Positions 1,425 to 32,000 of a stretch of DNA of 32,000 nucleotides are shown here, one piece after another. The stretch covers positions 210,001-242,000 of the forward strand of contig BAAFHK010000003.1 of assembly GCA_042852035.1 (NCBI GenBank), read 5' to 3'. This DNA comes from Candidatus Saccharimonadota bacterium (GTDB taxonomy: Bacteria > Patescibacteriota > Gracilibacteria > BD1-5 > UBA2023). The notes beneath the pieces were generated by a model that made no database searches, was not told the DNA's origin, and worked only from the letters and a program-made list of their open reading frames with translations. A program made the translations under genes and the position numbers. The stretch's first letter is position 1; every line of letters begins with the position of its first letter.

Positions 1425-2633
1425 TTATTTTATTTTCTTCTTATTCACGTACCACTGTTGGGCGATGACAAAAAGTGTACCAATAAACCAGTACAATCCT
1501 ACACCAAGAGGGAAAAATAGTGCGGTAACCCCAATCATTACGGGGAATACATAGAGCATTGATTTCTGCATCATTTGAGGATCAAGTGCAAGTTCAGGGG
1601 TCTCGCCTTCTTTCTTCTCAGTTTTTTTCTCTTCTTTTTTTGCTGGAGGATTATAGGCGAATGAAAGCTTTGCCTGAAGATATTGGAGTCAAGCAAGGAT
1701 AAGAGCAAAAATATTGCCCACCACACCCCCTATCTGTTTCAGGTCGATTCAGTAAAAATTTGTATTGATGGATGTAGGATCAAACTCTTTAAAGAAGCTA
1801 TAGAGGTGGTAGAAATTTGAAGGATCGGTAATGCTTGATACTACCCAGTATAGGCCTATGAGAATCGGCATTTGTATAAGAAGAGGGAGGCATGATCCCA
1901 TTGGAGAGACTCATTCTTTTTTGTAGAGTTCCAGCATTTCCATGCCAAGCTTTGCCTGATTATCCCTTTTTTCTTCAGGGGTAGCTCCCCCAGCATACTT
2001 TTCTTGAAGAGCTTTAATTTTTGGTTGTATGAATTGGAGTTTTTTCTGACTTTCTAACATGTGTTGTTGTGGCACGAGTAAGATAAGTCGGATAATTATA
2101 GTAATAATAACAATTGCCCAACCGAGTGGATGCCCAGGAAGAAACGTGAGAAGTGCAACAAAAAAGTTATAAATTGGATTATAAAAGACGGTGGTTAGTA
2201 GGGAACGAAATGCTCCAGGCTCTGAGAGTTCAAAGAATGTGGTTCTTTCTCATCAAGGAACCTTTAGTGTCAAAATATATTTCCCAGGTTTTTTCGCGAG
2301 CATGAGAGAGAGTTCTTCGAGAGGAATATGTACTTTATTACCAGCTCATACTGAAAGTGTTTGGCAAAAATTTGGAGCTCATTCTGCAAGTTTTCCAATA
2401 GTGGTTGAATTTACACTGAGGCTAATATCTTTACAGGTATCAAATGATATCCCTGATTGAGTATGGTTTACAACTTCGATTTTTGGTGAGTTTGGTATAA
2501 CAATCGTATCGTCAGTTATCGAAAGGAGAATATCATTTGTATCGTTGAGTTCCGCTTGCTTGTTCGTAAAGAAGTATTGAAATAGAAGCGTAAATGAGAG
2601 CGCATAAAGTGCAATAATAATATATCGATTCAT
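1425..2633 (-). CDS. yidC: Membrane protein insertase YidC/Oxa1 family
   Basis: Table-25 translation contains LYKKE-G(TGA)-VSPMGSCLPLLIQMPILIGLYW, the YidC core motif, plus a basic C-terminal tail. Frame is open 1425..2744; ATG at 2631-2633 (MNRYIIIALYAL, N-terminal TM) preferred as start. Confidence 0.8.
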
Positions 2634-2680
2634 AAAGATAATCTTCTTGTAGAGGTTAGGATTAATAAGTGTAGTAAATA

Positions 2681-2962
2681 TTACTCTCCATGCATGATGG
2701 ATGAAAGAGCTATCTGATGGCCAATAACTCTTTGATTTGAGCAATCAAGCAGCGAGTCACTTGTTACGATAGAAGGAACAACCTTATCTTCACGGGGAAG
2801 AAGGGTTCATTTTCAACTTCTTGTTACGTTTGTTATCGAGCTTGTATCAACTTGAGCAATAGAATCGAATGATTCTAGTACACTATCGATAATCACAGTA
2901 TTTTCAGATGAAAGTGCTGTGAGTTTTTTGAGTGTTTTGATTTGGTCTTGTGTGAGTGACAT
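2681..2962 (-). CDS. Hypothetical protein (93 aa)
   Basis: ATG 2960-2962 to TAA 2681-2683 with two in-frame TGA (2807-2809, 2813-2815). Lies directly upstream of yidC. No recognisable motif. Confidence 0.4.
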
Positions 2963-2997
2963 TTTTCTATATACTGACTCGCATATTATAGGAAAAA

Positions 2998-3351
2998 ATG
3001 GTTAAAATCAAGGACATTCGTGACCGTCTCTATAAAGATCCGACCGAATACACCGAGATACGTCTCCTTATAGCAAAACGTACGCTCGCTTTCTTTATCG
3101 CACTCTATTATACCTCACTTCTTTTTACAATTTGAGGTTTTTCTTTCTTTGTATTCGATATTTACACCCTTTCGCAAATTACCTACCATATATATACAGT
3201 ACTTGTAATCATGATGGCGTGGTTCTTTTATGAATTAGTGGTATATGGTGTCCATGTTTATGCTGATAATCAGCGATGGTTGATAGTTGCGGCGCTTGGA
3301 TTTTCAACGGTTTTTGTCGGATTTTCTCTCTATACTCATTTTATAAGTTAG
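2998..3351 (+). CDS. Small membrane protein (117 aa)
   Basis: ATG 2998 to TAG 3349-3351, one in-frame TGA. Three hydrophobic segments. Confidence 0.55.
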
Positions 3352-3352
3352 T

Positions 3353-3904
3353 ATGCTTCGTTTTTTTATTGTTTTTATTGTGCCTTTTCTTTTTGTCGGA
3401 TGTACCCTCCCAGGAGTACAGGACGAAAGCACTCTTGTTGAAGATAATACCGTGACCTTTGAAAATGATCAAGTGTCAATGCTTGTTCCAAAAACTTGGA
3501 GTGGAAAAACTGATAATTTTCCTCCTCTTCGCGCGGGTTCAGTTATAGCAGCTTTTATATCTGGAGATGTGAGACAGGGTTTTGCAAATAATCTTCTTAT
3601 TATTTCAGATGACCTTGTAAATGTTATGACGTCCAAACGATATAGTGAATTCAACAACCTTCAAACGAAGAAAAATTACTATGAATACTCGAGTCTTAAG
3701 GAAGAAGACATGACGTTTTCTGATAATGAAATAACACGAATTTATGTCTTTGAGGCTCGATATAATGAAACAACCCCGAAAATGAAGTTTATCCAGGCTG
3801 CTCGTGTCTGTGGTACAAAAGTATATCTTCTTCATTTTACTCTTTCCCCTGAGAAAAAGAGTGATAACTATATATCCCTTATGAAGACATTTACTTGCAA
3901 GTAA
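3353..3904 (+). CDS. Putative lipoprotein (183 aa)
   Basis: Intact track ORF. N-terminus MLRFFIVFIVPFLFVGC has a signal peptide plus lipobox Cys. Confidence 0.7.
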   Translation: MLRFFIVFIVPFLFVGCTLPGVQDESTLVEDNTVTFENDQVSMLVPKTWSGKTDNFPPLRAGSVIAAFISGDVRQGFANNLLIISDDLVNVMTSKRYSEFNNLQTKKNYYEYSSLKEEDMTFSDNEITRIYVFEARYNETTPKMKFIQAARVCGTKVYLLHFTLSPEKKSDNYISLMKTFTCK

Positions 3905-3940
3905 GTATCTCCAATTAACCAAGACTACACTGAGAAATAT

Positions 3941-4442
3941 ATGGAAGAAACATCTCGATGTAATGTAGTGAAAGATGTTCGTCCAGAAGATCGTATTCAC
4001 CTTCATGATAAAAATGGAGATACAATCCATGTTCATATGGCGGCATCAACCTGGGGGGATCTTTTTAATAATCTTTATTGGGATATTGGAAATGATCGTA
4101 TTATGACCGATGATGGGAACGAGTTCCGAACAGGATGGAAGGAATCTCTATTATATATTAAATGGAGAGCAATCCCTTCTATGAATAGCGAATATTCCAG
4201 TTAAAAGTGAAGATCAGCTTCTTATATATTTTGGTACAGGAACTTATGATGATGTTATGAGGGATATTTACCCTCTTGTTTCCAAAAACGCTCATGAATA
4301 TAATGAAAAACAAGATCCCGCTAGTTGTAGTACTAATGCTCAAGGAGCACTTCTTGATGGATTCTTATGAGGCATAAGTGTCGCTTGGGATCAAATTAAA
4401 GAAAGGTTTCCACATAGTCATAATAAGGAAGATTCTCATTAG
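3941..4442 (+). pseudogene. Frameshifted gene: His-rich N-part (frame of 3941) plus NG...IYFG C-part (+1 frame)
   Basis: Frame 1 gives RIHLHDKNGDTIHVHMAASTWGDLFNNL and stops at 4202-4204. The +1 frame gives GRNLYYILNGEQSLLGIANIPVKSEDQLLIYFGTG... and ends at TAG 4440-4442. The two halves look like one domain family split near 4130-4140. Confidence 0.45.
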
Positions 4443-4554
4443 TATGCAGAAATATGTGTATTGACAATATTTGTCAATATTTCTTTGTTTGATTTTTCTA
4501 AAATTCGAGTAGAATACTCATGGCTCCGGGATTACTTTTTAACCCCTTTTGCCT

Positions 4555-5208
4555 ATGCGCTTCTTGAGAAGACTCGTCTCTGCCTTCAGTAGTCCGTCTC
4601 CTTCTCCTGTCCCGCCACATTCTCGCACATCTCTATCATATCGTGATAGAGTACGAGCTATACAAGAGCTCGATACCGGTTTTATTCATCACCGTCTTGT
4701 GCATAGAGACTGACTCGACAGTTCGCTTGCGAATAATGCCATACTAAAATATAAAGAACTCCTCAAAAAGGCTCTCGACCTACATGGTCTTGGAACCCTG
4801 AACTCTAGAACTCTCAGACCCGATCATCTTACGGATAAGGCTTGGCACGCACATGTGCTTCATACTAAGCGTTATCGAGATGATTGTATGAGAGTTCTTT
4901 GATTTTATCTCGAGCATATTCCTGATGACTCCCATGATGTACGATGAAGTGCTCACCTATCATCAACTCGAAGAAAAAGAGAAAGCTCTTCCAGTGCTTG
5001 AGAATCATTGAATTCTTATTCTTGAGTTGATATTCCTTTATGGGATACTTCCCCACATTCCAATACGTTTTCTGGGAGCACCAAAAGTTCGGACTCTATT
5101 AGTGATGCATCTTGATCAGAATCGGGCTCATGAGATGCATCCGGGGATGGTGGATCATCATGTGGGGGGTGAAGTTCCTGTGGGGGGTGATGCGGTGGTT
5201 GAGACTAA
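4555..5208 (+). CDS. Glycine-rich-domain (DUF1399-like) protein with Gly/Cys-rich tail
   Basis: 217-codon frame closed only by TAA 5206-5208. Contains DKAWHAHVLHTKRYRDDCMRVLGFYLEHIP. The tail GSESGSGDASGDGGSSCGGGSSCGGGCGGGD uses many TGA codons. The middle third is low complexity and an alternative frame is also open. Confidence 0.5.
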
Positions 5209-5212
5209 TAAA

Positions 5213-5245
5213 AATCCCTCCAATATGGAGGGATTTTCTTATTTT
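5213..5245. terminator. Bidirectional intrinsic terminator between convergent genes
   Basis: Perfect 9-bp stem AATCCCTCC (5213-5221) / GGAGGGATT (5227-5235), 5-nt loop, A-run before and T-rich run after. Confidence 0.6.
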
Positions 5246-5262
5246 GCTCGCTCAAGGTATTC

Positions 5263-5802
5263 TCAAGTTTCCGTATTAATCACGATAGATTCATCTTGAT
5301 TTACAAATCCTGGAACTCGCATCTCAAGACCAGTTTCGAGTTTTACTACTTTATCAACCTTTCCATCAGCTGTGTTTCCTGCAACGGCTGGTTCAGCTTC
5401 GATAACCTTGAGAGTAACACGAAGAGGAAGAATAATACCAATAAATTTTCCTTCGAATGTTTGGAGGTCCACAACAACACCTTCAGTCAGATAGAATGCT
5501 GCATCACCTACGTCATCCTCATGGAGCTCCACCGTTTCGTATGTTTCCTGGTTCATAAATGAGTATGTATCCCCAGAAGAATAGAGAAATTCTGCCTTTG
5601 CTCGTTCAAGAACAACGTCTTCAAGTTTTTCTTCACTGTCCATAACTCTGTCAGACGACCCATTTTGCATGAGATTCTTGAGTCGCATTGCTACATTGGT
5701 GGCTCCACGTCATCCTCGTTTCATTTCGTGTCTTACAACGAGAAAGAGTCCGCCATCTATTTTGAGTACAGTACCAGTACGAGCCTTAAGAGCAGTAATC
5801 AT
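5263..5802 (-). CDS. efp: Elongation factor P
   Basis: MITALKARTGTVLKIDGGLFLVVRHEMKRG-G(TGA 5710-5712)-RGATNVAMRLKNL joins the track ORF 5263..5688. 179 aa, typical EF-P layout. Confidence 0.85.
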
Positions 5803-16626: not shown

Positions 16627-16704
16627 GGCACCATGGCAGAGTGGTCAATTGCAAGGGCCTGCAAAGCTCTAAAGTCATCGGTTCAAATCCGATTGGTGCC
16701 TCCA
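16627..16704 (+). tRNA. tRNA-Cys (anticodon GCA), U73 discriminator, CCA encoded
   Basis: Acceptor GGCACCA/TGGTGCC, anticodon arm AGGGC-CTGCAAA-GCTCT, T arm ATCGG-TTCAAAT-CCGAT. My hand fold leaves a 6-nt variable region. Confidence 0.85.
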
Positions 16705-16854
16705 TACCAACATTTTGGTCAATGAAATTTCTATAATTTTCTCCTACCATAGAAACCTATTAGGTAAAGCAAAGTTAAGAAATGGAAAATGACATAAGAA
16801 ATAAGATGAATTGTAAAAACAGAGGAATAAACAAAAAATCTCCAACCTTTTGAT

Positions 16855-16873
16855 AGGGGGGAGATTTTTTTGA
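16855..16873 (+). repeat. Direct repeat copy 1 (attL-like): AGGGGGGAGATTTTTTTGA
   Basis: Identical 19-mer to 26684-26702. Also forms the descending arm of a hairpin with AAAAATCTCC (16834-16843). Confidence 0.7.
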
Positions 16874-16877
16874 GACT

Positions 16878-17624
16878 TTACTTTGCTTTATTTGCTAAAT
16901 CTAATATCCATTTTTTAGTGATTACCATTAAATTCTTTTGTTTATAATTTTTATCAAGATACCAAACTCTCAAAGTTTCAGATGGTAAATTATAAATATC
17001 TAATAGCTCTTGTTTGGTGAGTTTTTGTTTGTTATATGTTGTGTTAGGTTTCTCACAAGCAATTTTTTTTATTTCAGTCAAATCTTTATTGAGATCATCT
17101 ATATAACTCTTATTTGCTTTTAGTTTTTTATATCATAAAGCATAGTTCTTATAATCATTTAAGAGCAGTCAGGTTATTTTATTACATCTTGTATCATAAA
17201 GTATTTGAATGTTATTACTTTGATTATTTTGTATATGATTTCATAGTTTTCTTAATAATCCTTCCCTCTTCTTCATTTTAATAATTCACTCAATGGCAAT
17301 AGTATATGAGTAATTTGAATAAGTTGTTATATTATCAATGGTATCTGCTTTAATCCACATTCAAGCCTCATATAATCCAGCAGCACAAATTAAAGGTGCT
17401 ACTCATACTTTGGTAGCCTCTTTTAATGTCATTGTTGCTAACTCCAAAACTCATTCTTTAACAATTTCAGCATCATCATTACTATATAATGCTTCTGCTA
17501 ATCATAAATAAGGAACACAATCCTTTGCAACATCATTTGTGTATTCTGTTGCAGTTTTTGCATAGAGATTATTTGAAGCAACTAAAATGATAAAAGAAAT
17601 TACTATTAGAAATATTTTTTTCAT
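16878..17624 (-). CDS. Secreted hypothetical protein (248 aa)
   Basis: ATG 17622-17624, signal peptide MKKIFLIVISFIILVASNNLYA. Reads through several TGA into track ORF 16878..17081; length is a multiple of 3. Confidence 0.55.
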
Positions 17625-17649
17625 AATAAAGAGATTAAAAAAATAAGAC

Positions 17650-17952
17650 CTAACTTTTATAAAATTTATAAAGTTGGTAAGGAATAAGAAGAGAGCCTAT
17701 AAGCATAGATAAACATAATTTTAAGAAGTTCCAAAATAACCAGAACCACCAAGTTCCAACAAGACCTATTGTTTGAGGCTTGTGTTGATTAATAAAACTC
17801 CATCAGAGAGGAATTCAAGTAAATCAATAAACAGCAAGAATAGTTTCAGAAGAAGGGTTTCCTTGTTGTAATGAGGACATTAATCAAATTATTCAAAAGA
17901 CTAGTCATAACCATAGAGGTTTGAGTAAGTCCCAATTTCTTTTTTTATTCAT
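17650..17952 (-). CDS. Small membrane protein (100 aa)
   Basis: ATG 17950-17952 to TAG 17650-17652, six in-frame TGA. Trp-rich hydrophobic segments (GLVGTWWFWLFWNF). Confidence 0.45.
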
Positions 17953-18372
17953 AAAATATAAAAAGGTTAATGTTAAATGGATAACATCAACCTTTAAAAG
18001 AAATCAGCACTAAAAAAGGAGGATATATCCTAGTGAGTGCTGATTTCACATTTACATCTTCTAATAGTAGAGGAGGTTGGATATACCCTCCTTGTTTACT
18101 ACTATTAAAAAGACATCAAATTAGAAATTTGAGCAAGAAAAAAAGATGTTTTTGTGAAATCAGCCTGTGTATTCTATTTAAAGTTTCTTGTATTGCAAGA
18201 GCATACAGGGATTAATATATCAAAAATACCAAACAAAATAGAAAAAGAAATATAACTGCAAAATATAAAACTCTTCAAATAAAAGACAATGTAGTATTTC
18301 CAATCTCCACATTGCTTTTATTTTTTATAAGAGTTTTTGAGATAGTTTTGCATATTTCTTAACTTTCTATTT

Positions 18373-18684
18373 ATGCTTACTTCTATTTTTTGAAATACTA
18401 TTACCTTCTCTTTTAATACCCCTGTATCTGAAACAGGATTTTTATCAGAGAACTTTGATCTCACTAAAAAATCTGCTTATGCTACAATTTGAATACAAGA
18501 TTTGTTAAAATTCAAAAATGATATTCAACTACAATTTATCCTTTCTAAAATATTTTCTGCTATTAATGAAACTGCAAAAATTCAAAAATTAGATTATTTC
18601 CAAAATATCAACATAAATTGAAATGATGTATGGTGCATAGATGATGGAAATACTATTTGTCTTATGTTAAAAGAGGAGTATTAA
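18373..18684 (+). CDS. Hypothetical protein (103 aa) upstream of mod
   Basis: First ATG after in-frame TAG 18343-18345; three TGA; TAA 18682-18684. Followed by the hairpin AGAGGAG...CTCCTCT and a T-run. Confidence 0.5.
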
Positions 18685-18750
18685 GCTCCTCTTTTTGCTT
18701 TTTTTCAATTTTTCATATAATCTAGGCAATTTTACTAATAAGTTAAGAAA

Positions 18751-20742
18751 ATGGCTCTAAATCAACAAGAAAAAGAATTTCTATTGCAACTTATTAATGA
18801 ATGAAAAGATATACCAGAAGATTTCAAATATAAACTTTTTCCTACTCTACAAAAGGAGTATGAGTTAAGTTATGCAGGTAAGATGAGAAAAGAAGATCTT
18901 TTTGCTAATGAAGATGGTGTTTTTCCTGTTCCACTTCAAGTAGAAAAAACTTTTAATTGAAATGAATATAAATGATTTGAAGATGGATGGAAAAATATGA
19001 TCGTGTTTTGAGATAATTTACAATTCTTAAAAACAATTTATGAGAATAAAGATGATACCATTAAAGATAAGATTAAAGGAAAAGTGCAATTAATATATAT
19101 TGACCCACCATTTGCAACTACTGATGAATTCCAAAATAAAGAATGAGCTAAGGCTTATAATGATAAAAAAATAGGGTCTGAATTTATTGAATTTCTTAGA
19201 AGAAGACTACTGATTGCAAGAGAAATACTTAGTGATAAGGGGGTAATATATATTCATCTGGATTGGAAAATGTCTCAATATATCAAAATAGTTTTAGATG
19301 AAATATTTTGAAAAAATAATTTTAGAAATGAAATTGCTTGGTGTTATAGTTGACCTTGAAAAAGCAGTAAATCTTTTATAAGAAAACATGATACAATTTT
19401 ATTTTATGCAAAAAATTGGAAAGAAAGCACTTTTAATATACAAAGAATAGAGCATAAATCATGAATTCATAATAGAGGAGCATATCTATGAAAGGAAAAT
19501 GAAGATGCATGAGAACTTGTTGAAAAACTTGAAGAAGAATGAAAGAGATTAGAAGATTGGTGGACTGATATATATACTGCAGACAGAAAAAGAAATGAAC
19601 TAATCTGATACCCTACACAGAAACCAGAAGCACTATTAGAGAGAATAATTATGGCAAGTTCTAATGAGTGAGACATAGTTATGGATTTTTTTGGAGGCTC
19701 ATGAACTACAATGGCTGTTGCAGAGAAATTATGAAGAAAATGGATTAGTTGTGATTTATGAAAACTAGCCTATTTTACAGAACAAAAAAGAATACTTACT
19801 ATTCAAGATAGTAAATCCCTATTAGATGAAAAGAAAAACTATTGAAAAAAAGCAAGGAGTTTTATGACCTGCACTCTATGAATGTATAACTTGAAGGATA
19901 CTCTTGATTTAGAATGGAGTAAGTATAAAGAATTTGTAGGAACACTTTTTGATATAGATATTAAAACTACTACTATTTGATGAGTTGAATTTGATGGGAA
20001 AAAGTGATCTGCTCCTGTAAAAATGTGGGACTATAATAAGCATAAGGATGCAAATGTTGATGAAACATATATTAATACACTTCATCAGTCTATTAAGGCA
20101 AAAACAAGTAGAGTTTATATTGTTGCCCCTGCAAATAATATAGGTTTTATTAGTGATTATTTTGAAATAGATGGAACAAGATACTATTTCTTAAAAATAC
20201 CTTATCAGGTTATAAAAGAACTTCATAAAAAATCATTTCATAAAATTAGACAACCACAAAGTAAGAAGAATGTAAATGATCTTGAAGAAGCAATAGGCTT
20301 TCACTTTATCAAGAAACCAGAAGTAAAATCAAAAATAGTTGTTTCTAATGATGAAATATGTGTAGAAATTTCAGAGTTTAGAAGTCAGTATTATAAAGAT
20401 GAAGAATGAAAAATATTAGAAAATTTTGAAACTCTATCTGCTGTTTTTATAGATGCTAATTTTAATGGAGATCAGTTTATAATGACAGATGTAAAATTTG
20501 CTGATGATTTATTGTCAAAGAAGAAAAAAGGTAAGAAGGTAGATGAAGATGAAGAGATTGATGCAGAATTAGATGAAGATGAAGAAGGGGTAAGTAATGA
20601 AGAGATTAGAGCAGAATTAAAAGAAACAGCAAATAAAGGATTAAAAATAATACTTCCAAGAAAAAAAGTAGGAGATAAAGTAATGCTTATCTATACAGAT
20701 ATTTATGGGAATGATTTTACAGAAATACTAACAGTCAATTAA
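18751..20742 (+). CDS. mod: Type III restriction-modification methyltransferase (Mod), beta-class N6A/N4C MTase
   Basis: Motif IV LIYIDPPF precedes motif I DFFGGS-G(TGA 19702-19704)-TTMAVAEKLGRKWISCDL. I count 23 in-frame TGA. In frame with track ORFs 20023..20409 and 20482..20742. Acidic C-terminal insert. Confidence 0.85.
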
Positions 20743-20743
20743 T

Positions 20744-23344
20744 ATGCAAGATATACATATTTTTAGAAATCAAGACCTAGTCTTAAAAGTTAATCCTACT
20801 TATGATCCTACAAAATTAAGATTAAAAGAATGGGATAGTTTTTTAGATAAACTTTGTTGAGATAGAGATTATCAGAAAGAAGCAATAAAGCAGGTGATTA
20901 TCTTTATGGTGTGAGGAAAATATAAAAAAATAGAGGATTTAGCAGAGGAGAATTATAAAAATAATCCTGAACTACAAATAAAATATTCATCTCTTGAAGA
21001 TTATTTACATAAATTACAAATTCAGGGAAAGTTATTTGCTAATATTGATCTTGCCACCTGAACTGGAAAATCTTATGTAATGTATGGTATAGCACAAATA
21101 ATGTTGGGATTATGAGTTGTAGACAGAGTATTGCTACTTTGTCCCTCTTTGACTATTGAAGCAGGGTTAAAAGAAAAATTTGAAAGTTTAAGTTGAAACC
21201 AGCAACTAAAAGATGCTATACCTGAAAACTCCATAATAAAAAATCCAAGAATTATTGATGCAAACCAAACCATTAAAAGCGGAGATATATGTATAGAAAA
21301 CATACATGCAGTATATGAAAAAACAGGATCTTCTATACAAGATAGTCTAAAATGAACTGGCAGTAATGTATTAGTTCTTAATGATGAATCACACCATATT
21401 TTTAATAAATCTTCTGATAAAGATGTTAAAAAATGGAAGGAGTTTTTAACTAATGATGATTTTTGATTTCAGTATATAGTTTGATTTACAGGAACAGCAT
21501 ATATTGATAATAACTATTTCAATGATGTTATATATAGATTTTCATTAAGAGAAGCAATAGAAAATAAGTTTGTGAAAAGTATTGAGTATGTAGCAAAAGA
21601 TGATAGTATTTGAAAATGAGAAAAATTTCAAAAGATCCATCAAAACCATATTGATAATATAGATAGATACCCAAAGATTAAACCTCTTACTATTCTGATT
21701 ACAGCAGATATTGAAAAAGCAGAAGAATTAAAAGATGATTTAGTTGAGTTCTTGATGCAAAAAGAGAATAAAAGTAAAGAACAGATAGAAGAAAAGGTTT
21801 TAATTATCACTTCTCATAAAGATCATAAAAGTAATTTACTAAAACTAAAAACAGTTGATAGCAAAGAAAATAAAACTGAATGGATTATATCAGTTTCTAT
21901 GTTAAGTGAAGGTTGGGATGTAAAAAATGTTTTTCAAATTGTTCCTTGGGAAGATAGGGCATTTAATTCAAAACTACTTATATCACAAGTTTTATGAAGA
22001 GGTTTAAGAGTGCCACCAGAATATGAATTACCACAACCAAAAGTGATAGTATTTAATCATGATGCTTGGAGTAGAAATATCATAGAACTTGTAAATGAAG
22101 TGTTGGAGATTGAAAAAAGAGTGGTAAGTGAGGTGCTTGATAGTTGAGACAGAAGTAAATATAATTTTGAAGTATTTAATCTAGATTATTCAAAAGAAGA
22201 AGTGGAAGTTGAATTAGAAACAAAAGAAAGTGTGATGAATTTTAGTAGAATATTTAATGAATGAATTAAATTGGAAGCACAGGTTGAGGAAATAGAAAAA
22301 TGAACTGTATTTGAGAGTTTAGGTTGAACTCAATCCCAGAGAGAAAAAAATTACTTGATTGAATATGCAACAACTTCTGTTGATGATATAGTAGATAAAA
22401 TCTATTCTGAATTTGAAATGAGGGATTGGGAATGAAAAGTGCTACAACTTAATCAAGAACAATATACTCAAAATAATCTACCTCCTAGAACAGTAATTAA
22501 GGAAATTATTATAAAATCAATGCAAAAACTCTGAATTAAGGGGGAAAGATTGATAGAAAAAAATAAAAATCATATCCTTTCAGGATTTTGAACTTTATTA
22601 AGAAAAAAGAATAAAACAGTTATTACAAAACTTAAAGTCAATGATCCTATACTAATAAAAACCATAGAAGTAGATAGAGAAAGTTTAGGAATTTGAAATT
22701 TTAGAAAAGATTGCACTGTATTTCTGACAACAAACTATTTACAGGAAGTAAATGAAGAACAAGGTGCTATTCTTTCTGAATTAAGTGAAGATGAAAGCCT
22801 CCCTAGAAGTGCAATCAAAGAGCAGAATGAGTATTTATTTAAAACACCCCTTAATGTTATCTTAACAAAATGAGAACCTGAAAGAAAATTTATTGAAGGT
22901 TTATGTAAGCAAGATGTTGTTGAAAAAATTAATTGTTGGATTAAATCGAGAGATAGAGGCTTTTATGGTATAGAGTATAGTTTGAGATATTGAGATAAAT
23001 GAAGTAATACAAGGAGATATACAAATAAAAAATTTAACCCTGATTTCTTTATTCAAATACAAAAAGAAGATATAAAATATACTCTTGTTATTGAAACAAA
23101 GATGGATTGAGATGATAGTGAAGAGAACAAAGCAAAATATAAATATGCATTAGAACATTTTAATAGATTAAATGAAGAACTAGAACAGAGAGGAATAAAT
23201 GAAAAATACATTTTTCATTTTCTTAGCCCCCAATGATATTCAACATTTTTTGAATATTTAAAAGATGGAAGAATATTGGAAGGACAAGAAAAGTATAGGT
23301 GTGCTCTTGAAAATAGCCTAGAAAATAATGAAGAGGAGCTATAA
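20744..23344 (+). CDS. res: Type III restriction enzyme Res subunit (SF2 helicase plus PD-(D/E)xK nuclease)
   Basis: ATG 1 nt after the mod stop (TAATATG). DLAT-G(TGA 21059-21061)-TGKS, LNDESHH, GFTGTA, SVSMLSEGWDVKNV, QVL-G-RGLR. C-terminal NPDFFIQ...LVIETK nuclease motif. 866 aa. Confidence 0.85.
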
Positions 23345-24091
23345 TAAGGAAATTGCATACTTCCCTGTAAAGTTTTCTTTTAGGATTTCTTCATATTTTT
23401 CTTTTTTATAATCCCAACAAGACACAATCAAAATAAGGTTCTTTTCTCTAAACAGAGGAAAGAACTTTTTATTATTCTTTCTAGTATTCATATCTTCATA
23501 TCCTAGTACTTTCTGATGAAACTGTTTGTATGAGTTCATATTTTCTAATTCAAGACAATAGGCTGTATTTCAGATACTTAATAGTAAATCTGGTATCATA
23601 ACAAAATCTAGATATTCATATTTAGTTTCAGGATTTTTTAACTCTGTTTGAAGTATTTTTTGGATTGTTTTTGATCCTGTAAAATATTCTGCTTTCAATA
23701 CAAAATCCTTATTTTTATTTCTAATCTTTCATAGGAAATAAACAAAGAGATCTCATAATAGTAGTTGATGATTATATAGGGTATAACTGGTATTATAAAT
23801 TGATGGTTCATATTTTATTCAGGTCTCATAATAAATCCTGTTTAGGACTATTTCAGTAGTATTTAGCATATAAATACTATACTGGCTTATACTTTTATAT
23901 TCTTGTTTCAGTTCTTTTATAAATCAATGCTTTTTCAGGAGGAGTAGCCTTATATTAAAGGTTTTATGTTGGGTTTCTGGACTAACAATATTTTTTAGAT
24001 TTCTAGAACTACAAAATCATAATTCATTTAAAGTATGAAATATTAACAAGTCCCTAGGTGTTAAAACTATATTTTCTCTGGTTTTATTCAT
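23339..24091 (-). CDS. Replication-relaxation-family-like protein (wHTH plus PD-(D/E)xK-like core), 250 aa
   Basis: Translated codon by codon from ATG 24089-24091. N-terminus LTPRDLLIFHTLNELGFCSSRNL; later HQLLLGD and MIPDLLLSIGNTAYCLELEN. Stop overlaps the res stop by 6 nt. Confidence 0.5.
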
Positions 24092-25538
24092 ACTTTTCTC
24101 AATTAGATTTTAAAAGTTTCTGTATATTTTGATCTCAAATATTTAAAGACTGTGTTAATATGCTTAAAGTTCAGTGGTTAATAGTGTCAAAAACAGAATA
24201 GAACTCTCATCTTTTGAGATTAACAATATCTTTTTCACTTATTGCAAACTTTTGCTCTAATCAAGAATTGGTAATAGGAACAAATAACTCTGCCTGTTCT
24301 GGTGGTAATGCAAAAATAAGTGAATAACTCAAATTATTTAGTAAATCCTGTAATTCTCTACTGATACTCTGGAATATAAACAACATATTTATTTTTTTCT
24401 TCCTGTGTTCATTTAGTATTTTCTCTAAAATATCTAACATATGATTTTTACTACCTTGGAGTTCGAGAAAACTTTGAAATTCATCACAAGTATAATAATG
24501 GCTTCATAAGTTGGGATTATTATGATTTTTACCTGCTCCAATGTGATATAAAATGTTTGTAAGGAAAGATATTACTACTCTTCTTTCTTGGGTATTGAAT
24601 ACTGAAAAATCAAATAGATATACTTCTGTTTGTTTCTTTTCTCAACTCATATAGTGTTCTATGTCCAATGTAAGTTCTTTATAACTTTTTCAATATCCAA
24701 AAGTATCTCCTAATCAAAAACTAAAATCTTTCAATTTTGTTAAACTGGTAATATGAGACTGTTTATCTACTTGAAGATCTTTAAGAAAAGTTTTTAACTC
24801 TTGGTCTACTCCATTTGCAAGTTGGAGTATGTCAGAATGAGTAGAAGAAAATAGTTTTTTTCTATCTTCATCAAGATAAGTAGGAAGTTTCTGGCATCTA
24901 CTGGTATAATCTAACAAATCATATAAATCCCTATAAGATAATAAAACATTGTCAGGATCTCTATGGTATCTTTCTATATTGATAACTATAAAACTTCTTA
25001 TAAGTCCCTCTAATACTTTTGTGTTTGAGGGTCAGAAAGCAGAGTAGTTAAATACTCATTTCAAAGAGGAGATATTATAGTTTACCCATTTATTTAAGTC
25101 TGTAATATCTTCTACAAGAGACAAAGCAAATAGTGGATTAAAGAAAAATGTTTTATCCATATAAAACCCTCTATATTTTTTATTATTTTCAATAGTTTCA
25201 TTGGAAAATCTAAAAATATCTCAATATCTGCTTAATTTTGGATTATCTATTAAGTATTCTCATAAAAGATTTAACAAAGGATTTATAAATGAGTTATGGG
25301 GATCAATACAAACAAAAGTATCTCCATACTTTGTATTATCTGGTTGAGACTGTTGTAAAATTGAAGATTTTATAGTAGAAAATAGGGTAGATACTAAACT
25401 GTATGTTTTGCCACTTCAAGATTTTCAGAATATTCATCAATGACCGGATTTTAAAATATTGTAGTTGAGTGATAAAAGTGCTTTATCTTCTAGTATATGG
25501 GACTTCTGGACTGTCCCTATGGGTATAATGTGAGACAT
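24084..25538 (-). CDS. HerA/FtsK-superfamily (T4CP-like) P-loop ATPase, 484 aa
   Basis: PIGTVQKSHILEDKALLSLNYNILKSGH-G-GIF-G(TGA 25425-25427)-KS-G(TGA 25416-25418)-SGKT Walker A; HYYTCDEFQSF Walker B. No N-terminal TM. Stop overlaps the downstream start (ATGAATAA). Confidence 0.6.
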
Positions 25539-25572
25539 AGTATAGGCTGGTTAAGTGATATGTTATATTGTA

Positions 25573-26475
25573 TTAATAAAAATTAAGATTTTTGATTAAA
25601 TTACATTCAAAAAATCATGAACTAGGTAAAATTATGGCTTTATCCTGAATAGTTCCTGAAATATGGGAAAGTGGTAAAAATAGCCCTTGTGATAATAGTG
25701 CTTCCGGTTGAAGTAGTCTTTTATACTGTGGTATATAATCTAAAAATGTTTTATATTCAGTTATTGAGTAGGAATTATACAGAGATGCATATAGTCCAAG
25801 GTTCTTATACAAAATACTTTTAATATCCCTATATTGCAGGTTATGTGATATATTAAATTGAAATAGAAACATGTTCTGGCTTTCAGTAAAAGAACTTATA
25901 AAACTCTCCTGCTCCTTTTCATTCATATTTTTACTTTTCTGGGTATATAAATAATCCTTTACTAATGATGAATAAGATCCCTTTGAGAATGAAAAGAGTA
26001 TTTTAATAACTTCATTTTCATTAATGAAGGGCAATATTTCCTGTATGAATGAACTTTTTATAGATGAGGAGGTTGTAAAGTCTCAGGCTCATAAAGCACC
26101 AAGTTTCTTAATTTGTAATACAGAGTGGTTATTAAGTCAGATTTTATAAATATGCTTGTATGATTGTCTTAATATGAAATCCCTTTTTATGTCTATTGAA
26201 AAACTGATCTTTCAGTTGTAGAGTTTGATAAAAAACTGCATTATATAATTAATACCTTCAAGACTATTAGAAAATATATATTCATCTATAAAAACTCTAT
26301 TTTTAGCCTGATAGCAATGTGTTTCCATTCAAAACCATAGATGAGGGAGGTAGAAAGCATTTAAATCATTCTTGATGGAATTTATAAGGTTTTCTCAAAA
26401 GTTGGTTCAAGGATTGATTTTTAAATAGAAAAGTTGATGCTCTGGAAAATATGGAATATTTGAAATTTGAAACAT
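25573..26475 (-). CDS. Hypothetical protein (300 aa), first gene of the minus-strand trio
   Basis: ATG 26473-26475. Track ORF 25615..26034 extended both ways through TGA; TAA 25573-25575. No motif recognised. Confidence 0.5.
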
Positions 26476-26560
26476 GGAGATCAAAATTAATAAAACAAAT
26501 AATCATTATATTAATTTTTAGAAACTATGGATTATGTCATTGTATATTCTTCATTACCTA

Positions 26561-26688
26561 CCCCTGTAATTTTTAGACTTTCTTTTATTTAAAAGGAAAA
26601 GAGCCTAATAGGTCATAACTTAAAACTTATGACCTATTAGGCTCTAACCACACCTTATTTATAGTGGAAAGTCTAAAAATTACAGGGG
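26561..26688. repeat. Nested perfect palindrome (22-bp outer arms, 19-bp inner hairpin)
   Basis: Outer arms CCCCTGTAATTTTTAGACTTTC (26561-26582) / GAAAGTCTAAAAATTACAGGGG (26667-26688). Inner arms AGAGCCTAATAGGTCATAA (26600-26618) / TTATGACCTATTAGGCTCT (26627-26645), 8-nt loop. Confidence 0.9.
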
Positions 26689-26702
26689 GGAGATTTTTTT
26701 GA
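26684..26702 (+). repeat. Direct repeat copy 2 (attP-like): AGGGGGGAGATTTTTTTGA
   Basis: Identical to 16855-16873. Flanked by the inverted half-sites GTCTAAAAA (26671-26679) and TTTTTTGAC (26695-26703). Confidence 0.7.
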
Positions 26703-26748
26703 CTAAAGGAAGAAAAAGATATACTTGATATTAATTAATGTAATTATT

Positions 26749-27783
26749 ATGACTAGATTAATAGATGGGGTAAGGGAGGCAGGATTGGAACAAGGAACAG
26801 ATGGAAGAGTAAGCAAAGAAAAAGTAAATGAGATGTTAGAGTTTTTTAGTAAAGCATTTTGAGAAGATGCTATATTATCTGTATGAGGATTTGATAAGAA
26901 ATTAGTTGATGCTGTTAAAGAAAATGACAATATCATTAAAAGATTATTACAATCAGAATTAGAAAGAAATTGTAGATATGAAATGAATATAAGCACTTCT
27001 AATGTTAAAGAAGTTATTGAGTGGATTGATATTATCAATAACAACCAAGAAAAAAATGGTTGAATTATCTGAAAACAATTTAGATTTACTGCTAGTATTA
27101 TTGAGGCATTACTTGCATTTTTAAAACTCTATCAATCTGCAAATATTGTTAATCAAAATGAAAATGGAAGAGAAAAAGAAATAATTCTGGTTTTGATTGT
27201 TAAGACTTTAAGGTATGCAATAGGTTCTGGAAAGAATGGTTTTACAGGAATAAAGTCTGATTTATTTTCAAAGTTTGAAGAAGTATTGCATAGGATTTTT
27301 GATGATGCTGATATTGAAACAGATGAGAAAACACAACTTATTTTTCAGTGAAGTGCAGGATCTTATGGAAATGCACCAAAAAATAATGTATGGATAGAAG
27401 ATTTTATTAGATCTGTTTCAGGAGATGGCTGAAATGTATTAGTTCATTTTTTAAAAAAATCACAACTCAATAAAACAGAGTTATTATTATATACTGATAA
27501 AAATATTGTAGAAGTTATCATTGAATATTGAAATAACTTTATATTTATTCTTACAAATAGTAGAGAATGGAAAAAGGAGGCAGTTTTACTTTATAAAACT
27601 ACTGAAAATATCTTGCAGGATCAAGTTAATAGATGATGAATTGAAAAAATTATTAATCTATTTCTTCAATGAGGTTTACCAGTTGAAAAGAATGATAATC
27701 TAAAAGTTATTAGTAGAAATGATATTTTAGATAGAAAGTTTATTGCAGAAGAAGACTTTGGTAAAATTATTCAAATTTCTTAA
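26749..27783 (+). CDS. Hypothetical protein (344 aa)
   Basis: I checked every codon 26749-27783: no TAA/TAG, 11 TGA. No recognisable motif. Confidence 0.55.
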
Positions 27784-27822
27784 TTTCCTTTTATTAAGGT
27801 GGGTATGGGTATTTTTTAAATT

Positions 27823-29376
27823 ATGGACTTACAAAAAAAGATTACAGACACTCTGGATTTACAAATAAATGCTGATGATATTTTATATTCAAATATTGAT
27901 AAGTTAGGCTTTTATTTTAAGTCATCAGAACTATTCTGATATTTTAAATCAAAAGATCCATTTCCAGATAAAGAAGAAGTTATTACTATCTGAGATACAA
28001 AGTATAATTTTCTAGTTTATCTTTCAGATAAAGACTTGAATGGATATGATAAAAAACTATGACTAAAAATAGAATATAGAGGGGAATATTATGAGGTTAT
28101 AGATATTCTATTTAACATAAAAGAAAGTAGATATTTATGTGTTTTTCATGGAAAGTTGTGGAGGTTTTCAACTCTAAAAGAGTTTGGATTTTCAAATCAA
28201 ATATTAATTGAATTTATATCAAAAAACTTTACAGAGATACAATTAAGAGAAATTCATATTTGTTTAGATGTAGAAGAGAAAGAAGATTATCTAACTAGGA
28301 TTAATGAATATATTAAAAACTATGTTCCAAAGGTATTCAATAAAGATACCTACAATTTTAGTAGTTGAAATTTATGAAGACAAATTGAAATAGGTTTGCC
28401 AGACAGAAAGAATAATAAAGAGTTTTTTTATAAAATTTATAATAAGACTTTACAGGCTAGGAAGATGTGAATTGATAAAATATATGTTGATTATTGTTTA
28501 TCTACTGAAAAGAATGTGTTTAGATATGAAATAGAGTTTAGACAAAATATAGCAAAAACCATTAAATTAGAAGACTTAAAGTTAATCTGACCTATACTAG
28601 AAAATAAGAAACAGATGCATGCAGGGAAGTATATTTTGAATGAATGGATTTGTAGAACTCTTATTTCATATTTTGTAGACAAACAAAAATTTGATTTTGT
28701 GTTTTGACAACTCAATATTGAGAATGTGAAACTTAAAAGGTCTGAAAATAGAGCCACAGGTTCAGTTGGCAAAAGAATAAGTGATTTAAACCTGATAGGA
28801 CAGCTAAAATCTTTAAGAACCCAAGCAAAGAATATAGAAAGCACTACTTGAATACCCTTGAAGAACAACTTTGATAAGTTAGATGAAATTATAGGAGAAA
28901 GTCAGGATTACAGATATTATATCACTATTTATAGAGGAATTTTCAGGACAATAAAAAACCATTATGAAGAAAATGAGGTAAAGGATTTTGATGAACTTTC
29001 TGAATTGATAAAGGGGGCTACTACCTATGCACTCAATTTTCTAAAAACTGATTATAACAACTTCTTTAAGATTATAAGATGATGAATTAATAGGAATGCT
29101 GATAGTGTAATAGAGTTTCTTGCAGATAATGAAAACTCTTTAAGTGAATTGATTTATTTTTATTACTTTTGAAGATTAAGAGAATGAATATTGTTTGATT
29201 TCCTAGATGTTCTAAAAGAATGAAATATGCCATTATTTCAAAAATATTTTGAAGATGATAAGAAGTTAAGAGAGAGTATTGCAAATAAACAAAAATCAAT
29301 AAGTATGCTGAATGATGATAGTAATTTATCCTTTGATGATTACTCAAAGTCAGTTTTTAATATATTTTATAAATAA
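27823..29376 (+). CDS. Rep_trans-like rolling-circle initiator / MOB_T-type relaxase candidate (517 aa)
   Basis: I checked every codon. LREIHICLDV, QIEIGLPDRKNNKEFFYKIYNK and VFRYEIEFRQN resemble the R.D...D, ..YdK and R.E.e.R blocks of the replication initiation factor (Rep_trans) family as I recall them. Confidence 0.5.
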
Positions 29377-29387
29377 TCTCATTTTCT

Positions 29388-31286
29388 ATGGAACAATCAA
29401 AGAAAAAAAGAGTAGGAATATACATTAGAGTTTCTACATTAGACCAAGCAAAAAAAGGAACTTCTCTTGAAGATCAAGAGCAGAGTTTAAAATTATATAT
29501 ACAAGCAAACTCAATAGATGGTTGGGAACTTGCTGAAAATGGAGTTTACAGAGATGATGGAATTAGTGGTTTTAAGGGTATAGCAGATAGACCTGAATTT
29601 GATAGATTAATGAATGATGTGAATGACAAAAGATTAGATATTGTTTTGGTATATAGAATAGATAGACTAGCAAGAAATACAGAATTACTGCTGAATACTG
29701 TTAAGAAATTTAAAGTAAAGTGAGTGCAGTTTGTGAGTATGAGTGATAGAATTGATACAGATACAGCAAGTGGGAAGATGCTACTTGCTATACTAGGTGC
29801 TATGGCTGAAATGGAAAGGAACTTGATTTATGAAAGGACATATGCTTGAAAGATTAGAAAATTAAGTATGGGTTATGCTTCCTGATGATGATTTGATTTA
29901 CCACTTGGTTATAAAAAATGAGAAGATGGGAAGATAATGATTGATGAGCCATATAAAGAGTTAATCCAAGAGATTTTTGATCTTTGTACTGGGGAGAAGC
30001 ACTTTACACCAAAAGAAATTGCTGCTGAATTATCATCAAGGGAAGAAACTACTTGGTGGGATAAAAAAATGGCAAAACTTAAAAAGAAACAAGTTAAAAC
30101 AGGTGTCTGGAATGCAGATACAGTAAGAAAGATACTTCTCAATCCTATTTATAAATGAGTATACTATTTTTGAAAAACAAGAAAAGTGCTTGCAGATAAT
30201 GAAGAAGATGAAATTACTGTAAAAGTTCCAGAAGAAGAATGGCTACCAGTTCCTATGCCTTGTGGTTGAATTATTACAGAGAAACAATGGGAAGATGCTA
30301 AATATCAAATTCAAAAGATTAATAAAATTAATAGAGGAAGATGAAGAAGCCATATCTTTACAGGTCTAATTAAGTGTGGGTTTGACTGAATGAGTTATAT
30401 TTGTTATAGGTCAAAACAGAAGAAAGTTGAATACTTTTATTATAGATGTGGTGGAACAAATGCGTCTAAAAATGAGAATAAAAGAAAAGATACTGATGTA
30501 GGAAATATTGATATGCCTTTGTGTAATAATCTACAAGTTCCTGAATTAGAACTTTATAACTACTGTATTGATATTATTACAAGGTTCATAGAAGAACCAG
30601 AAGCACTATATAAACAAAAAATAGGGAATGATGAGGAGTTTAAGAAACAAAAAAAGATCCTTGAAACAAAAATAGAGGAAGATAAGTTAAAAATTAAAGA
30701 ACTTGAAGTTACTATAACATCATTGTATTATCAGAAATCAAAAGATAAAATAAATGCTGATAACATACAAAATGTGCTTGATACATACACACAAGATAAA
30801 GAAGCAGCATTGAAAAGACTTGAAAATAATGAAAAAGATTTGCTAAATTCAGAAAATCAGTTAAATTCTGGCAAGCAAATGAAACAGTTTGCTGAGACTT
30901 ACAAAGATAAACTTGCAAATCTTACAGAGGAACAAGGAACAGAACTTATTAGGTTGTTAGTTGATAGGATTGAAGTTAAAGGAACGTTAATTACAGTATT
31001 CTTTAAGTTCAAACCACACCCAGAGAGTTTTACACATAGTCAAACTCTAAAAAAAAACTCTAAAAAAATAGAGGGGGGAGATTTTACAACAAGTTCTACA
31101 CCAAACAAGCAGTCTCTCCAACATATATGCAGCCGTAGTTCAGTTGGATTAGAACGCCTCCCTGCGAAGGAGGAGGTCACAGGTTCGAGCCCTGCTGGTT
31201 GCACCATTTCAACTCATAGAAGACTCTTCAGTACCATTTTTTGGCTCTGGGGAGCTTTTTTTAGGTTCGTACTCATCTATACTTAA
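29388..31286 (+). CDS. Large serine recombinase; ORF has no stop before the element end and reads through tRNA-Arg
   Basis: VGIYIRVSTLDQ...YRDDGISG...RPEFDRL...VLVYRIDRLARN catalytic domain; recombinase domain; HIFTGLIKCGFD-G-MSYICY...YFYYRCGG zinc ribbon; coiled coil. In-frame stops 29388-31283 are all TGA; first TAA is at 31284-31286. The functional C-terminus is probably near 31030-31090. Confidence 0.8.
31072..31085 (+). repeat. Direct repeat copy 3 (attR-like): AGGGGGGAGATTTT
   Basis: 14-nt identity with copies 1 and 2. Left flank CTCTAAAAAAA resembles the copy-2 left flank GTCTAAAAA. Lies inside the recombinase ORF tail. Confidence 0.65.
31129..31206 (+). tRNA. tRNA-Arg (anticodon GCG), CCA encoded
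   Basis: Anticodon arm CCTCC-CTGCGAA-GGAGG (perfect), D arm GTTC/GAAC, T-loop TTCGAGC. The acceptor stem has two G-U pairs and the T stem has one A-C mismatch in my fold. Confidence 0.75.
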
Positions 31287-32000
31287 TCAAACCTTGGAAG
31301 GTTGGAACCGATAGTTAATTGCTATTACTGGTCTTAAGTTCTCACGTGTAACCACTATATCTCTCACAAGAATATTGATAATTTGCTTTTTTTGAGAAAA
31401 GGAGAGATTCTCAATTTTTGTCTCGATTGTTTTAGAAAATTCCTCAAGAGAGATTTTCATCTCTTCAGCTTGTACTATCCCATCAAGCTTCTCATCGAGA
31501 TCCTGTATCTGTTTTTCACAAGCTTCTCTATCCTGAGATATTTTTGCAAGGACTTTTTCATATTTCTCTTCGGAGAGCATACCTTTCCTGTAATCTAATT
31601 CAGTTGATAGATCAGCATCTTCGAGCCTTTCAAGTTCTATCTGACGACGTTCACGCTCTTTAGTATATGTGTCGTAATCTCTACTGTCGACAGATTGCTT
31701 ACGGAAGATATCATATAATTCCTGAGGTCTTTTAATAAAAGTCTCAATATGTTCCCATACCAATTCCTCTAGACTCAATCAAGGAATATCAAAGTTTTTG
31801 TAATACTTTCCTCGGATAGTTCGAGCTGGACGACGGTAACTTATTCCACCTTTTGTTCGACTCACTCATACAAATTTCCGACCAGTTTCAAGATCGGTTA
31901 CTTTTCTGGAGAGCAAATATTCTACGTTTCCACCTCATCTGACAGGATCCTCCTCACTCTCTTTGATGAGATTTTTTGCAAGCTCGAAGGTGAGATCGTC
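31149..32000 (-). CDS. Second large serine recombinase, C-terminal part (5' end beyond window)
   Basis: Coiled-coil C-terminal region (track ORF 31287..31778), continuous upstream through TGA to the window edge (..GRKFV-G-VSRTKGGISYRRP..). The track stop at 31287-31289 is TGA; the first TAA is 31149-31151, inside the tRNA on the opposite strand. Confidence 0.65.

Follow-up and report, generated by a model that had tools for sequence, protein, structure and literature searches.

The 32,000-nt stretch analyzed here (positions 210,001 to 242,000 of contig BAAFHK010000003.1, forward strand, assembly GCA_042852035.1; hereafter the window) comes from a Gracilibacteria genome of 1.3 Mb in three contigs, 91% complete. 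Three co-oriented genes near its right end, encoding a 344-aa orphan protein, a 517-aa protein (hereafter Rep) and a large serine recombinase (LSR), probably form the integration and DNA-processing arm of one integrative island of 14.4 kb, in which Rep, a divergent member of the Rep_trans superfamily, nicks a hairpin for rolling-circle replication or transfer. The LSR would excise the island as a circle from 16705-31120; Rep would then nick one strand at the hairpin (26561-26688) between two divergent operons, with Tyr206 joining the 5' end covalently, and a host helicase of the UvrD/PcrA type would drive rolling-circle replication, maintaining the island after excision. For transfer, this nick may also supply a single strand or the duplex to a HerA/FtsK-like ATPase whose gene lies across the origin. 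The features are listed in Table 1.

Table 1. Features of the island and its flanks (positions in the window)
Feature	Position	Strand	Details
tRNA-Cys(GCA)	16627-16704	+	3' end touches left junction
Whole integrative island, 14.4 kb	16705-31120	.	GC profile; empty site in congener G109; homology to relatives L002 and L003 ends at 31120
14-mer copy 1	16855-16868	+	150 nt inside left end
Cargo, Type III restriction-modification	18751-23344	+	Mod 18751-20742 and Res 20744-23344; N6_N4_Mtase E 1e-39, ResIII E 2e-12
Divergent module, 303-aa, 484-aa and 250-aa genes	23339-26484	-	synteny in relatives
250-aa gene	23339-24091	-	
484-aa HerA/FtsK-like ATPase	24084-25538	-	DUF87 E 7e-6; PADLOC mad8 E 1e-13
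303-aa gene	25573-26484	-	
Nested hairpin/cruciform, candidate origin (double-strand origin, dso, or origin of transfer, oriT)	26561-26688	+	divergent intergenic region; inner 46-bp palindrome 26600-26645
14-mer copy 2	26684-26697	+	3' foot of hairpin outer stem, 52 nt upstream of 344-aa ATG; identical in L002 and L003
344-aa orphan protein	26749-27783	+	first gene of operon; 7 homologues
517-aa divergent Rep_trans-superfamily nicking/joining enzyme (Rep)	27823-29376	+	catalytic domain about 19-300, predicted Tyr206; helical C-terminal domain about 300-517
LSR, about 577 aa element-encoded	29388-31120	+	integrated frame reads through tRNA-Arg to 31286
14-mer copy 3	31072-31085	+	in LSR coding sequence (encodes ..EGGDF..), 35 nt before element end
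tRNA-Arg(GCG)	31129-31206	+	8 nt right of right junction; LSR frame reads through

The GC content of the island was about 27% compared with about 37% in the host, and the drop in the GC profile began directly after tRNA-Cys. In the congener G109, tRNA-Cys and tRNA-Arg were only 10 nt apart, a precise empty site, showing that a single insertion occupies 16705-31120 in the window. The junctions read GGTGCCTCCA/TACC.. on the left and ..TCTCTCCA/ACATATATG-tRNA-Arg on the right (slashes mark the junctions); the insertion measured 14,416 bp, and CTCCA was common to both junctions. The left end at 16705 was placed by the G109 empty site alone, and none of the fetched loci contained the left-end (P') sequence. 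On the right, DNA homology to two related elements, L002 and L003, passed the third copy of a 14-mer repeat (copy 3) by 35 nt and stopped abruptly at 31120, beyond which each relative ran into different sequence. The LSR proteins of five elements aligned through ..EGGDFxTSSxPNxQSL and diverged after it. Because the DNA homology and the LSR tails both end there, the element/host junction lies at about 31120, within the LSR reading frame. A strain-specific insertion with a precise empty site, an atypical composition and an integrase at one end were all found here, as expected of a site-specific integrative island; the Rep family was absent from all four congeners searched. As a separate observation, the Logan contigs of both relatives stopped 20-25 nt past the element/host junction (L002 13358-13383, L003 13305-13325), possibly a sign that the populations sampled were mixed, either integrated with excised or integrated in different ways.

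The original prediction had noted Rep_trans-like blocks in the middle gene, and this was borne out by the fold, by a profile chain to RepDE and by the motifs of its product. A match of 27823-29376 to the Rep_trans profile, which had also been expected, was lacking at E ≤ 10, and the expected conserved catalytic tyrosine was present (Y206). The 517-aa protein had no significant match in Pfam, NCBIfam, PHROG or PADLOC, and the profile of its family matched no PDB sequence at E ≤ 10. The family was very small: a set of 5.8 billion clusters yielded nine proteins and one of 1.84 billion yielded 13 representatives, all from TGA-recoded metagenomic contigs. An AlphaFold2 (AF2) model built on eight homologues was confident for about residues 20-250 (predicted local distance difference test, pLDDT, 80-90) and weak in the helical C-terminus. 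When the model was searched with Foldseek, the top three matches were the Rep_trans initiators 4CIJ, 4CWC and 4CWE (E 4e-6 to 1.5e-5, probability 1.0). Alignment to RepSTK1 with VIA-align gave a Z of 12.2 over 220 of 265 residues (root-mean-square deviation 3.8, model residues 19-299). The next fold in VIA-align was that of TATA-binding proteins (TBP; Z 5.7), an expected runner-up because the Rep_trans fold itself resembles TBP (Carr 2016, PMC4797284). At the profile level, the 517-aa family picked up Rep-like proteins in nine other genomes of the class; when it was compared by hhalign with this Rep_trans-like group, the probability was 97.1% (E 6.6e-11, 215 columns), and the group profile matched RepDE at E 2.3e-10. 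Members of the group taken singly gave sub-threshold Rep_trans matches, with one above the Phage_CRI cut-off. Identity between the 517-aa protein and known Rep_trans initiators was about 13%.

The active site was mapped on an alignment of 22 sequences, ranging from canonical to divergent members, with residue roles taken from RepD (PMC4797284). RepD D46 was kept as D26, and R212-x-E214 was kept as R234-x-E236. The strand R189-x-Y191-x-K193 corresponded to K204-x-Y206-x-K208 (K-I-Y-N-K), with the nucleophile Tyr kept, and T176-x-Y178-x-G180 to Q187-x-E189-x-G191, with the Gly kept. R140-x-D142-x-A144-x-D146 had become E143-x-H145-x-C147-x-D149, in which Arg is replaced by Glu and Asp by His. 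Y206, K208, R234, E236 and D26 were conserved in every full-length sequence of the alignment, with Y206 and K208 unchanged in all 22 sequences, and Y206 is the predicted catalytic nucleophile. Of the three metal ligands of RepD (D46, D142 and E214), two were present as D26 and E236, and His145 occupied the D142 position. The His was fixed in the 517-aa clade and recurred independently in two other lineages, P0017 and G358, arguing for a tolerated variant rather than decay; His145 could perhaps bind metal. The catalytic domain came first and was followed by about 220 helical residues, and a helix-turn-helix (HTH) at the N-terminus was absent (the fold starts at residue 19, with no HTH family match). 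This layout resembles that of plasmid initiators (RepC/RepD) more than that of MOB_T relaxases (PMC9371924), and by architecture the protein is not MOB_T. Fold, profile comparison and motifs show that the 517-aa protein is a divergent new clade of the Rep_trans superfamily; it is a new clade rather than an ordinary member because the Pfam hidden Markov model test and one metal-ligand test fail.

Sequence to the left of the three genes was available in five independent contigs with Rep identities of 55-83% (L002, L003 and three further Logan contigs). In four of these the genes were preceded by the same divergent module of 300-, 484- and 250-aa genes, and the fifth contig was cut after the 300-aa gene; beyond the module lay variable defense cargo. 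The LSR gene was directly downstream of Rep in all close relatives. In 8 of the 10 distant loci of the class, a Rep_trans-like gene was also followed directly by an LSR gene on the same strand. Both loci that were analyzed in detail had defense cargo, namely a Type III restriction-modification system at G225 and a Type ISP enzyme plus Abi_C at G120. Since the pair recurs in these distant loci, the durable unit is Rep plus LSR, with the orphan and ATPase module as clade-specific extras. The predicted coupling of a rolling-circle initiator to a serine integrase was therefore recovered as a module recurring across the class. The accompanying proposal of a self-contained 4.4-kb integrative plasmid or satellite was not supported, because the relatives carry the same left module, the junction lies past copy 3 and the empty site corresponds to a 14.4-kb insertion. 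Had the three genes always been found in larger phage-like contexts, the original prediction would have been in doubt as well; the context was larger, but it was an island with restriction-modification cargo and was not phage-like.

No small circular contigs with the three genes were found in JGI metagenomes, IMG/VR or GTDB genome contigs. Two 4.7-kb ACD71 contigs (L004 and L005) carried the three genes with no terminal overlap, and the sole JGI metagenome match was the ACD71 contig. One relative contig started about 150 nt upstream of the orphan gene, at the start of the 46-bp perfect palindrome. Assemblers commonly break at perfect palindromes, and this start is likely an assembly break. In two distant modules the LSR frame was also seen to overlap a tRNA gene: tRNA-Arg(cct) in G225 (L030 6024-7608) and tRNA-Ser(tga) in G120 (L031 8919-10580). 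Placement of the attachment (att) site at a tRNA and within the integrase gene may characterize the whole class.

The LSR carried Resolvase (PF00239, E 7e-36) and Recombinase (PF07508, E 2e-9) domains and a weak Zn_ribbon_recom match (PF13408), matched the PHROG 95 integrase at E 1e-104, and contained the catalytic motif R-V-S16-T. Its predicted length was 632 aa in the integrated state and 610 aa in a circle closed at 16705/31120; a join of copy 3 to copy 2 would end it at a clean stop after ..GGDFFD. In one further contig (P0008/P0033, Logan SRR26192775), the LSR's C-terminal part was 94% identical to that of the window, compared with 62% for Rep and 69% for the orphan. These values describe a mosaic element and suggest recombination between related elements.

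The first of the three genes had been called an orphan, and it remained one: its 344-aa product had no match in Pfam, PHROG, NCBIfam or PADLOC, and only seven homologues were found among 5.8 billion clustered proteins, all encoded directly upstream of a Rep homologue. Structure prediction was of no help, since the AF2 model had a pLDDT of 45 and was unusable, and VIA-wide gave only generic helical-hairpin look-alikes (Z ≤ 8.8). A 346-aa protein at the same position in G225 was considered as a homologue and rejected, as it is not homologous. Ranked on position alone, the first candidate role of the 344-aa protein is that of a clade-specific accessory factor for Rep or LSR.

The candidate origin folded as single-stranded DNA with a minimum free energy of -42.5 kcal/mol (z -12.9 vs shuffles). 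Across three sequences, 9 of its 51 pairs were preserved through double changes, and such pairs lay both in the inner 19-bp stem and in the outer one. The 265-nt intergenic region, which includes copy 2 of the 14-mer, was 88% identical across relatives, more than the flanking genes (proteins 55-85% identical). The inner hairpin was AT-rich, with a 19-bp stem and a loop of CTTAAAAC or CTTATCAC. Rfam returned only sub-threshold microRNA-hairpin artefacts on the palindrome and no family, and a promoter scan did no better than on shuffled sequence. The oriT of ICESt3 also lies between divergent operons (PMC6499999). The host encoded two helicases of the UvrD/PcrA family, the partner class for Rep_trans initiators.

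The 14-mer AGGGGGGAGATTTT occurred at 16855, 26684 and 31072, all on the plus strand, and these were the only three exact copies in the genome. Copy 3 was kept in L002 and had two mismatches in L003; the left part of the relative L029 lacked a counterpart of copy 1. If the island formed a 14.4-kb circle, its junction would have copy 3 about 36 nt to one side and copy 1 about 150 nt to the other. The original prediction had ended its unit at 31085, the last nucleotide of copy 3; this proved to be neither a gene end nor the element end, as the LSR frame continues past copy 3. The 14-mers are not the crossover sites or junctions; they are probably binding sites, or perhaps termination sites, for an element protein. 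Copy 1 was also observed to pair with an inverted AAAAAATCTCC at 16833-16843, 12 nt upstream, giving a terminator-like hairpin (16833-16873) just past the stop of a minus-strand 248-aa gene (16878-17624).

When the region was translated with table 11, it split into short frames; the three long plus-strand frames were open only with TGA as sense. With this reading, the three co-oriented genes predicted between copies 2 and 3 were recovered as frames 26749-27783, 27823-29376 and 29388-31286. The 344-aa gene did bear TGA codons as predicted, although 10 were counted instead of 11. The LSR family motifs NPIYKG, GGG..PLGY and YASGGGFDLPLGY were seen with TGA read as Gly and were absent with TGA read as Trp, and TGA positions swapped with GGN codons across aligned homologues. 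Read from its sequence, the host is a code 25 (TGA = Gly) bacterium of the Gracilibacteria/SR1 type, because the LSR motifs need Gly, TGA alternates with GGN and a congener has a tRNA with a UCA anticodon. Code 4 (TGA = Trp) was rejected in favor of code 25, since the motifs and the GGN alternation need Gly. The tRNA in question, with anticodon TCA, was located in G109 directly after tRNA-Cys and tRNA-Arg (L020 1741-1819); it is labelled 'SeC' by ARAGORN and probably decodes TGA as Gly in code 25.

Several observations weigh against an island processed by a Rep_trans enzyme as proposed here. Pfam Rep_trans (PF02486) gave no match at E ≤ 10, either on the 517-aa protein or in a six-frame genome scan at the locus, and the AF2 model was confident only for about residues 20-250. 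Catalysis is not assured, because the metal-binding Asp (RepD D142) is His145 and the neighboring Arg is Glu143. The hairpin loop lacked the CT'AA nick motif in a GC-rich stem, the conserved arrangement at pT181 and MOB_T origins, where the motif sits in the loop of a short GC-rich hairpin (PMC9371924). The left end of the island was based on one congener and was not conserved in relatives, and a circular form, an excision junction and a same-strain empty site were all unobserved. The three 14-mers have an unexplained role, though they are island-specific and two copies are conserved in relatives.

It is quite unlikely that the region consists of tandem or accreted elements, with an autonomous 4.4-kb replicon bounded by copies 2 and 3 and the left 9.8 kb a second, non-autonomous element sharing the recombinase, so that copy 2 would serve as an attP-like site within the region and the small unit could excise on its own. 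The left flank of copy 2 resembles that of copy 3 and its right flank resembles that of copy 1; however, this chimeric pattern is inconsistent, because the right flank of copy 3 in L003 looks like the flank of window copies 1 and 2. Partial dyad symmetry is seen in copy 2, L002 and L003 keep copies 2 and 3 at a spacing of 4.38 kb, and a join of copy 3 to copy 2 would supply the LSR with its clean stop. Yet conservation extends 35 nt to the right of copy 3 in relatives with other insertion sites, and the LSR tails stay aligned as far as ..QSL. A small unit would fit the contig whose start lies near the orphan gene, but that start falls at the palindrome, a likely assembly break, and no circular 4.4-kb contig was found. 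Only one recombinase is present, in five independent contigs the three genes come with the left module and the intergenic region, and copy 1 is missing from L029.

A purely mobilizing element, in which the 517-aa protein is a MOB_T-like relaxase for transfer only and the island is an integrative mobilizable element (IME) or small integrative and conjugative element (ICE) that does not replicate after excision, seems unlikely. The relaxases of ICESt3, Tn916 and ICEBs1 are Rep_trans-family proteins, as are those of 45 of 144 streptococcal IMEs, and FtsK/TcpA-like coupling proteins accompany them (PMC5704250). In the island, a HerA/FtsK-like (DUF87-like) ATPase is encoded across the hairpin. However, the 517-aa protein lacks an N-terminal HTH, the distant Rep-LSR modules G225 and G120 are without the ATPase module, and the VirB4/CagE ATPase was not found in the 91%-complete genome, where only a weak AAA_10 match was obtained, outside the island. 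The distinction between mobilization and replication may itself be artificial, because in known systems the same Rep_trans enzyme also drives rolling-circle replication (PMC5704250). That the island is an immobile, fixed remnant, with Rep and LSR decaying or recruited to another task, appears highly improbable. In the integrated state the LSR frame lacks its own stop and extends across the tRNA gene, two active-site residues of Rep are non-canonical, and the family is tiny, with its 13 representatives among 1.84 billion. Against this reading, all three frames are intact over 344, 517 and 577 codons, the active site is invariant across relatives of 36-83% identity, and the His at the Asp position recurs in G358 and P0017. 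The island is also absent from the four congeners searched, relatives lie in different flanks and cargo is exchanged on a constant backbone. Reaching further than the single nicking and integrating island preferred here, Rep_trans-LSR pairs could constitute an undescribed class of small integrative rolling-circle elements with defense cargo and att inside the integrase gene, in Gracilibacteria and relatives, with the 14-mers as Rep recognition or termination sites and Rep-driven synthesis from copy 2 to copy 3 shedding a 4.39-kb mini-circle (orphan, Rep and LSR with restored stop). We regard this as a very doubtful conjecture; such a Rep-driven, rather than recombinase-driven, mini-circle would be a route to the minimal replicon originally predicted.

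The genes to the left of the hairpin belong to the divergent module and to the cargo. The mad8 model matched by the ATPase is a methylation-associated defense model, and the left module may conceivably serve in defense rather than in transfer. A phage or inovirus reading was dropped; structural and morphogenesis families were not detected with PHROG, save for one weak terminase-like match on the ATPase. The cargo of L002, like that of the window, was a Type III Mod/Res pair. By contrast, L003 carried an MvaI/BcnI-type endonuclease, an N4/N6 methylase and an OLD-family AAA-TOPRIM nuclease (1691-5521). Compared by sequence with 18751-23344 of the window, the defense cargo is swapped on a constant backbone. 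To the right of the island, the window held the C-terminal half of a second, convergent LSR (31152-32000, minus strand), 25% identical to the first over the coiled-coil region (E 2e-8). Its frame enters tRNA-Arg antisense, indicating that the same tRNA is bordered on its right side by a second island. In the window this second island lies between tRNA-Arg and the downstream sequence, at the place where the TCA tRNA follows in G109.

The mobile elements of code 25 candidate phyla are almost uncharted, and their replication proteins are missed by standard annotation; Rep_trans plus an adjacent LSR is a usable marker pair for finding such islands. The pairing also offers an account of how restriction and abortive-infection cargo moves between tiny genomes. 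The Asp-to-His change at the Rep_trans metal site, a naturally occurring variant, is open to biochemical testing, and the island's corrected limits matter for any use of the integrase or att sites.

Compared with the initiators of the pT181 family and pSTK1 (RepC/RepD/RepDE and RepSTK1; PF02486; 4CIJ, 4CWC), the 517-aa protein shares the crescent beta-sheet fold (Z 12.2), the order of active-site strands with the [RK]-x-Y-x-K Tyr strand followed by the R-x-E strand, the N-terminal Asp and a C-terminal domain after the catalytic one, and its gene likewise has a hairpin-rich candidate origin nearby. However, it is about 200 residues longer with a helical C-terminus, and its gene resides in a chromosomal, integrase-bearing island rather than on a small plasmid. 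It also differs in having no Pfam match and about 13% identity, in carrying Glu143 and His145 for RepD R140 and D142, and in a loop without CT'AA. With the MOB_T relaxases of ICESt3, Tn916 and ICEBs1 (RelSt3, Orf20 and NicK), it shares the Rep_trans fold, a place on an integrated element and an FtsK/HerA-type ATPase alongside. A serine recombinase, TndX, is used by Tn5397. MOB_T enzymes act as both the relaxase and the rolling-circle initiator of the excised element (PMC5704250, PMC9371924). Unlike them, the island enzyme has no N-terminal HTH, neither the island nor the genome yielded type IV secretion system (T4SS) genes, the origin differs from the 7-bp GC-rich CT'AA hairpin, and the host uses code 25.

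The streptococcal IMEs with Rep_trans/MobT proteins (Coluzzi 2017; Guedon 2017, PMC5704250) are, like the present element, small islands (5-20 kb) with an integrase, a rolling-circle-type protein, an optional FtsK-like protein and cargo such as restriction-modification. In contrast to these IMEs, att here lies inside the 3' end of the LSR gene, Pfam does not detect the Rep clade, the host differs in phylum and code, and the 344-aa partner has no relatives outside the clade. The pSAM2-type ICEs of actinomycetes, compared by description only, share the logic of an integrase, a rolling-circle Rep and a single FtsK-like translocase, in which excision is followed by replication and then by transfer without a T4SS. 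Their Rep belongs to a different superfamily, the HUH type, and their integrases are mostly tyrosine integrases. The translocase of pSAM2-type elements is the FtsK-like TraB (PMC5704250). Overall, the island resembles Firmicute IMEs and ICEs that combine a Rep_trans enzyme, an FtsK-like ATPase and a serine or tyrosine integrase, and it differs from them in its host and genetic code, its Rep clade, the att site within the integrase gene and the orphan partner.

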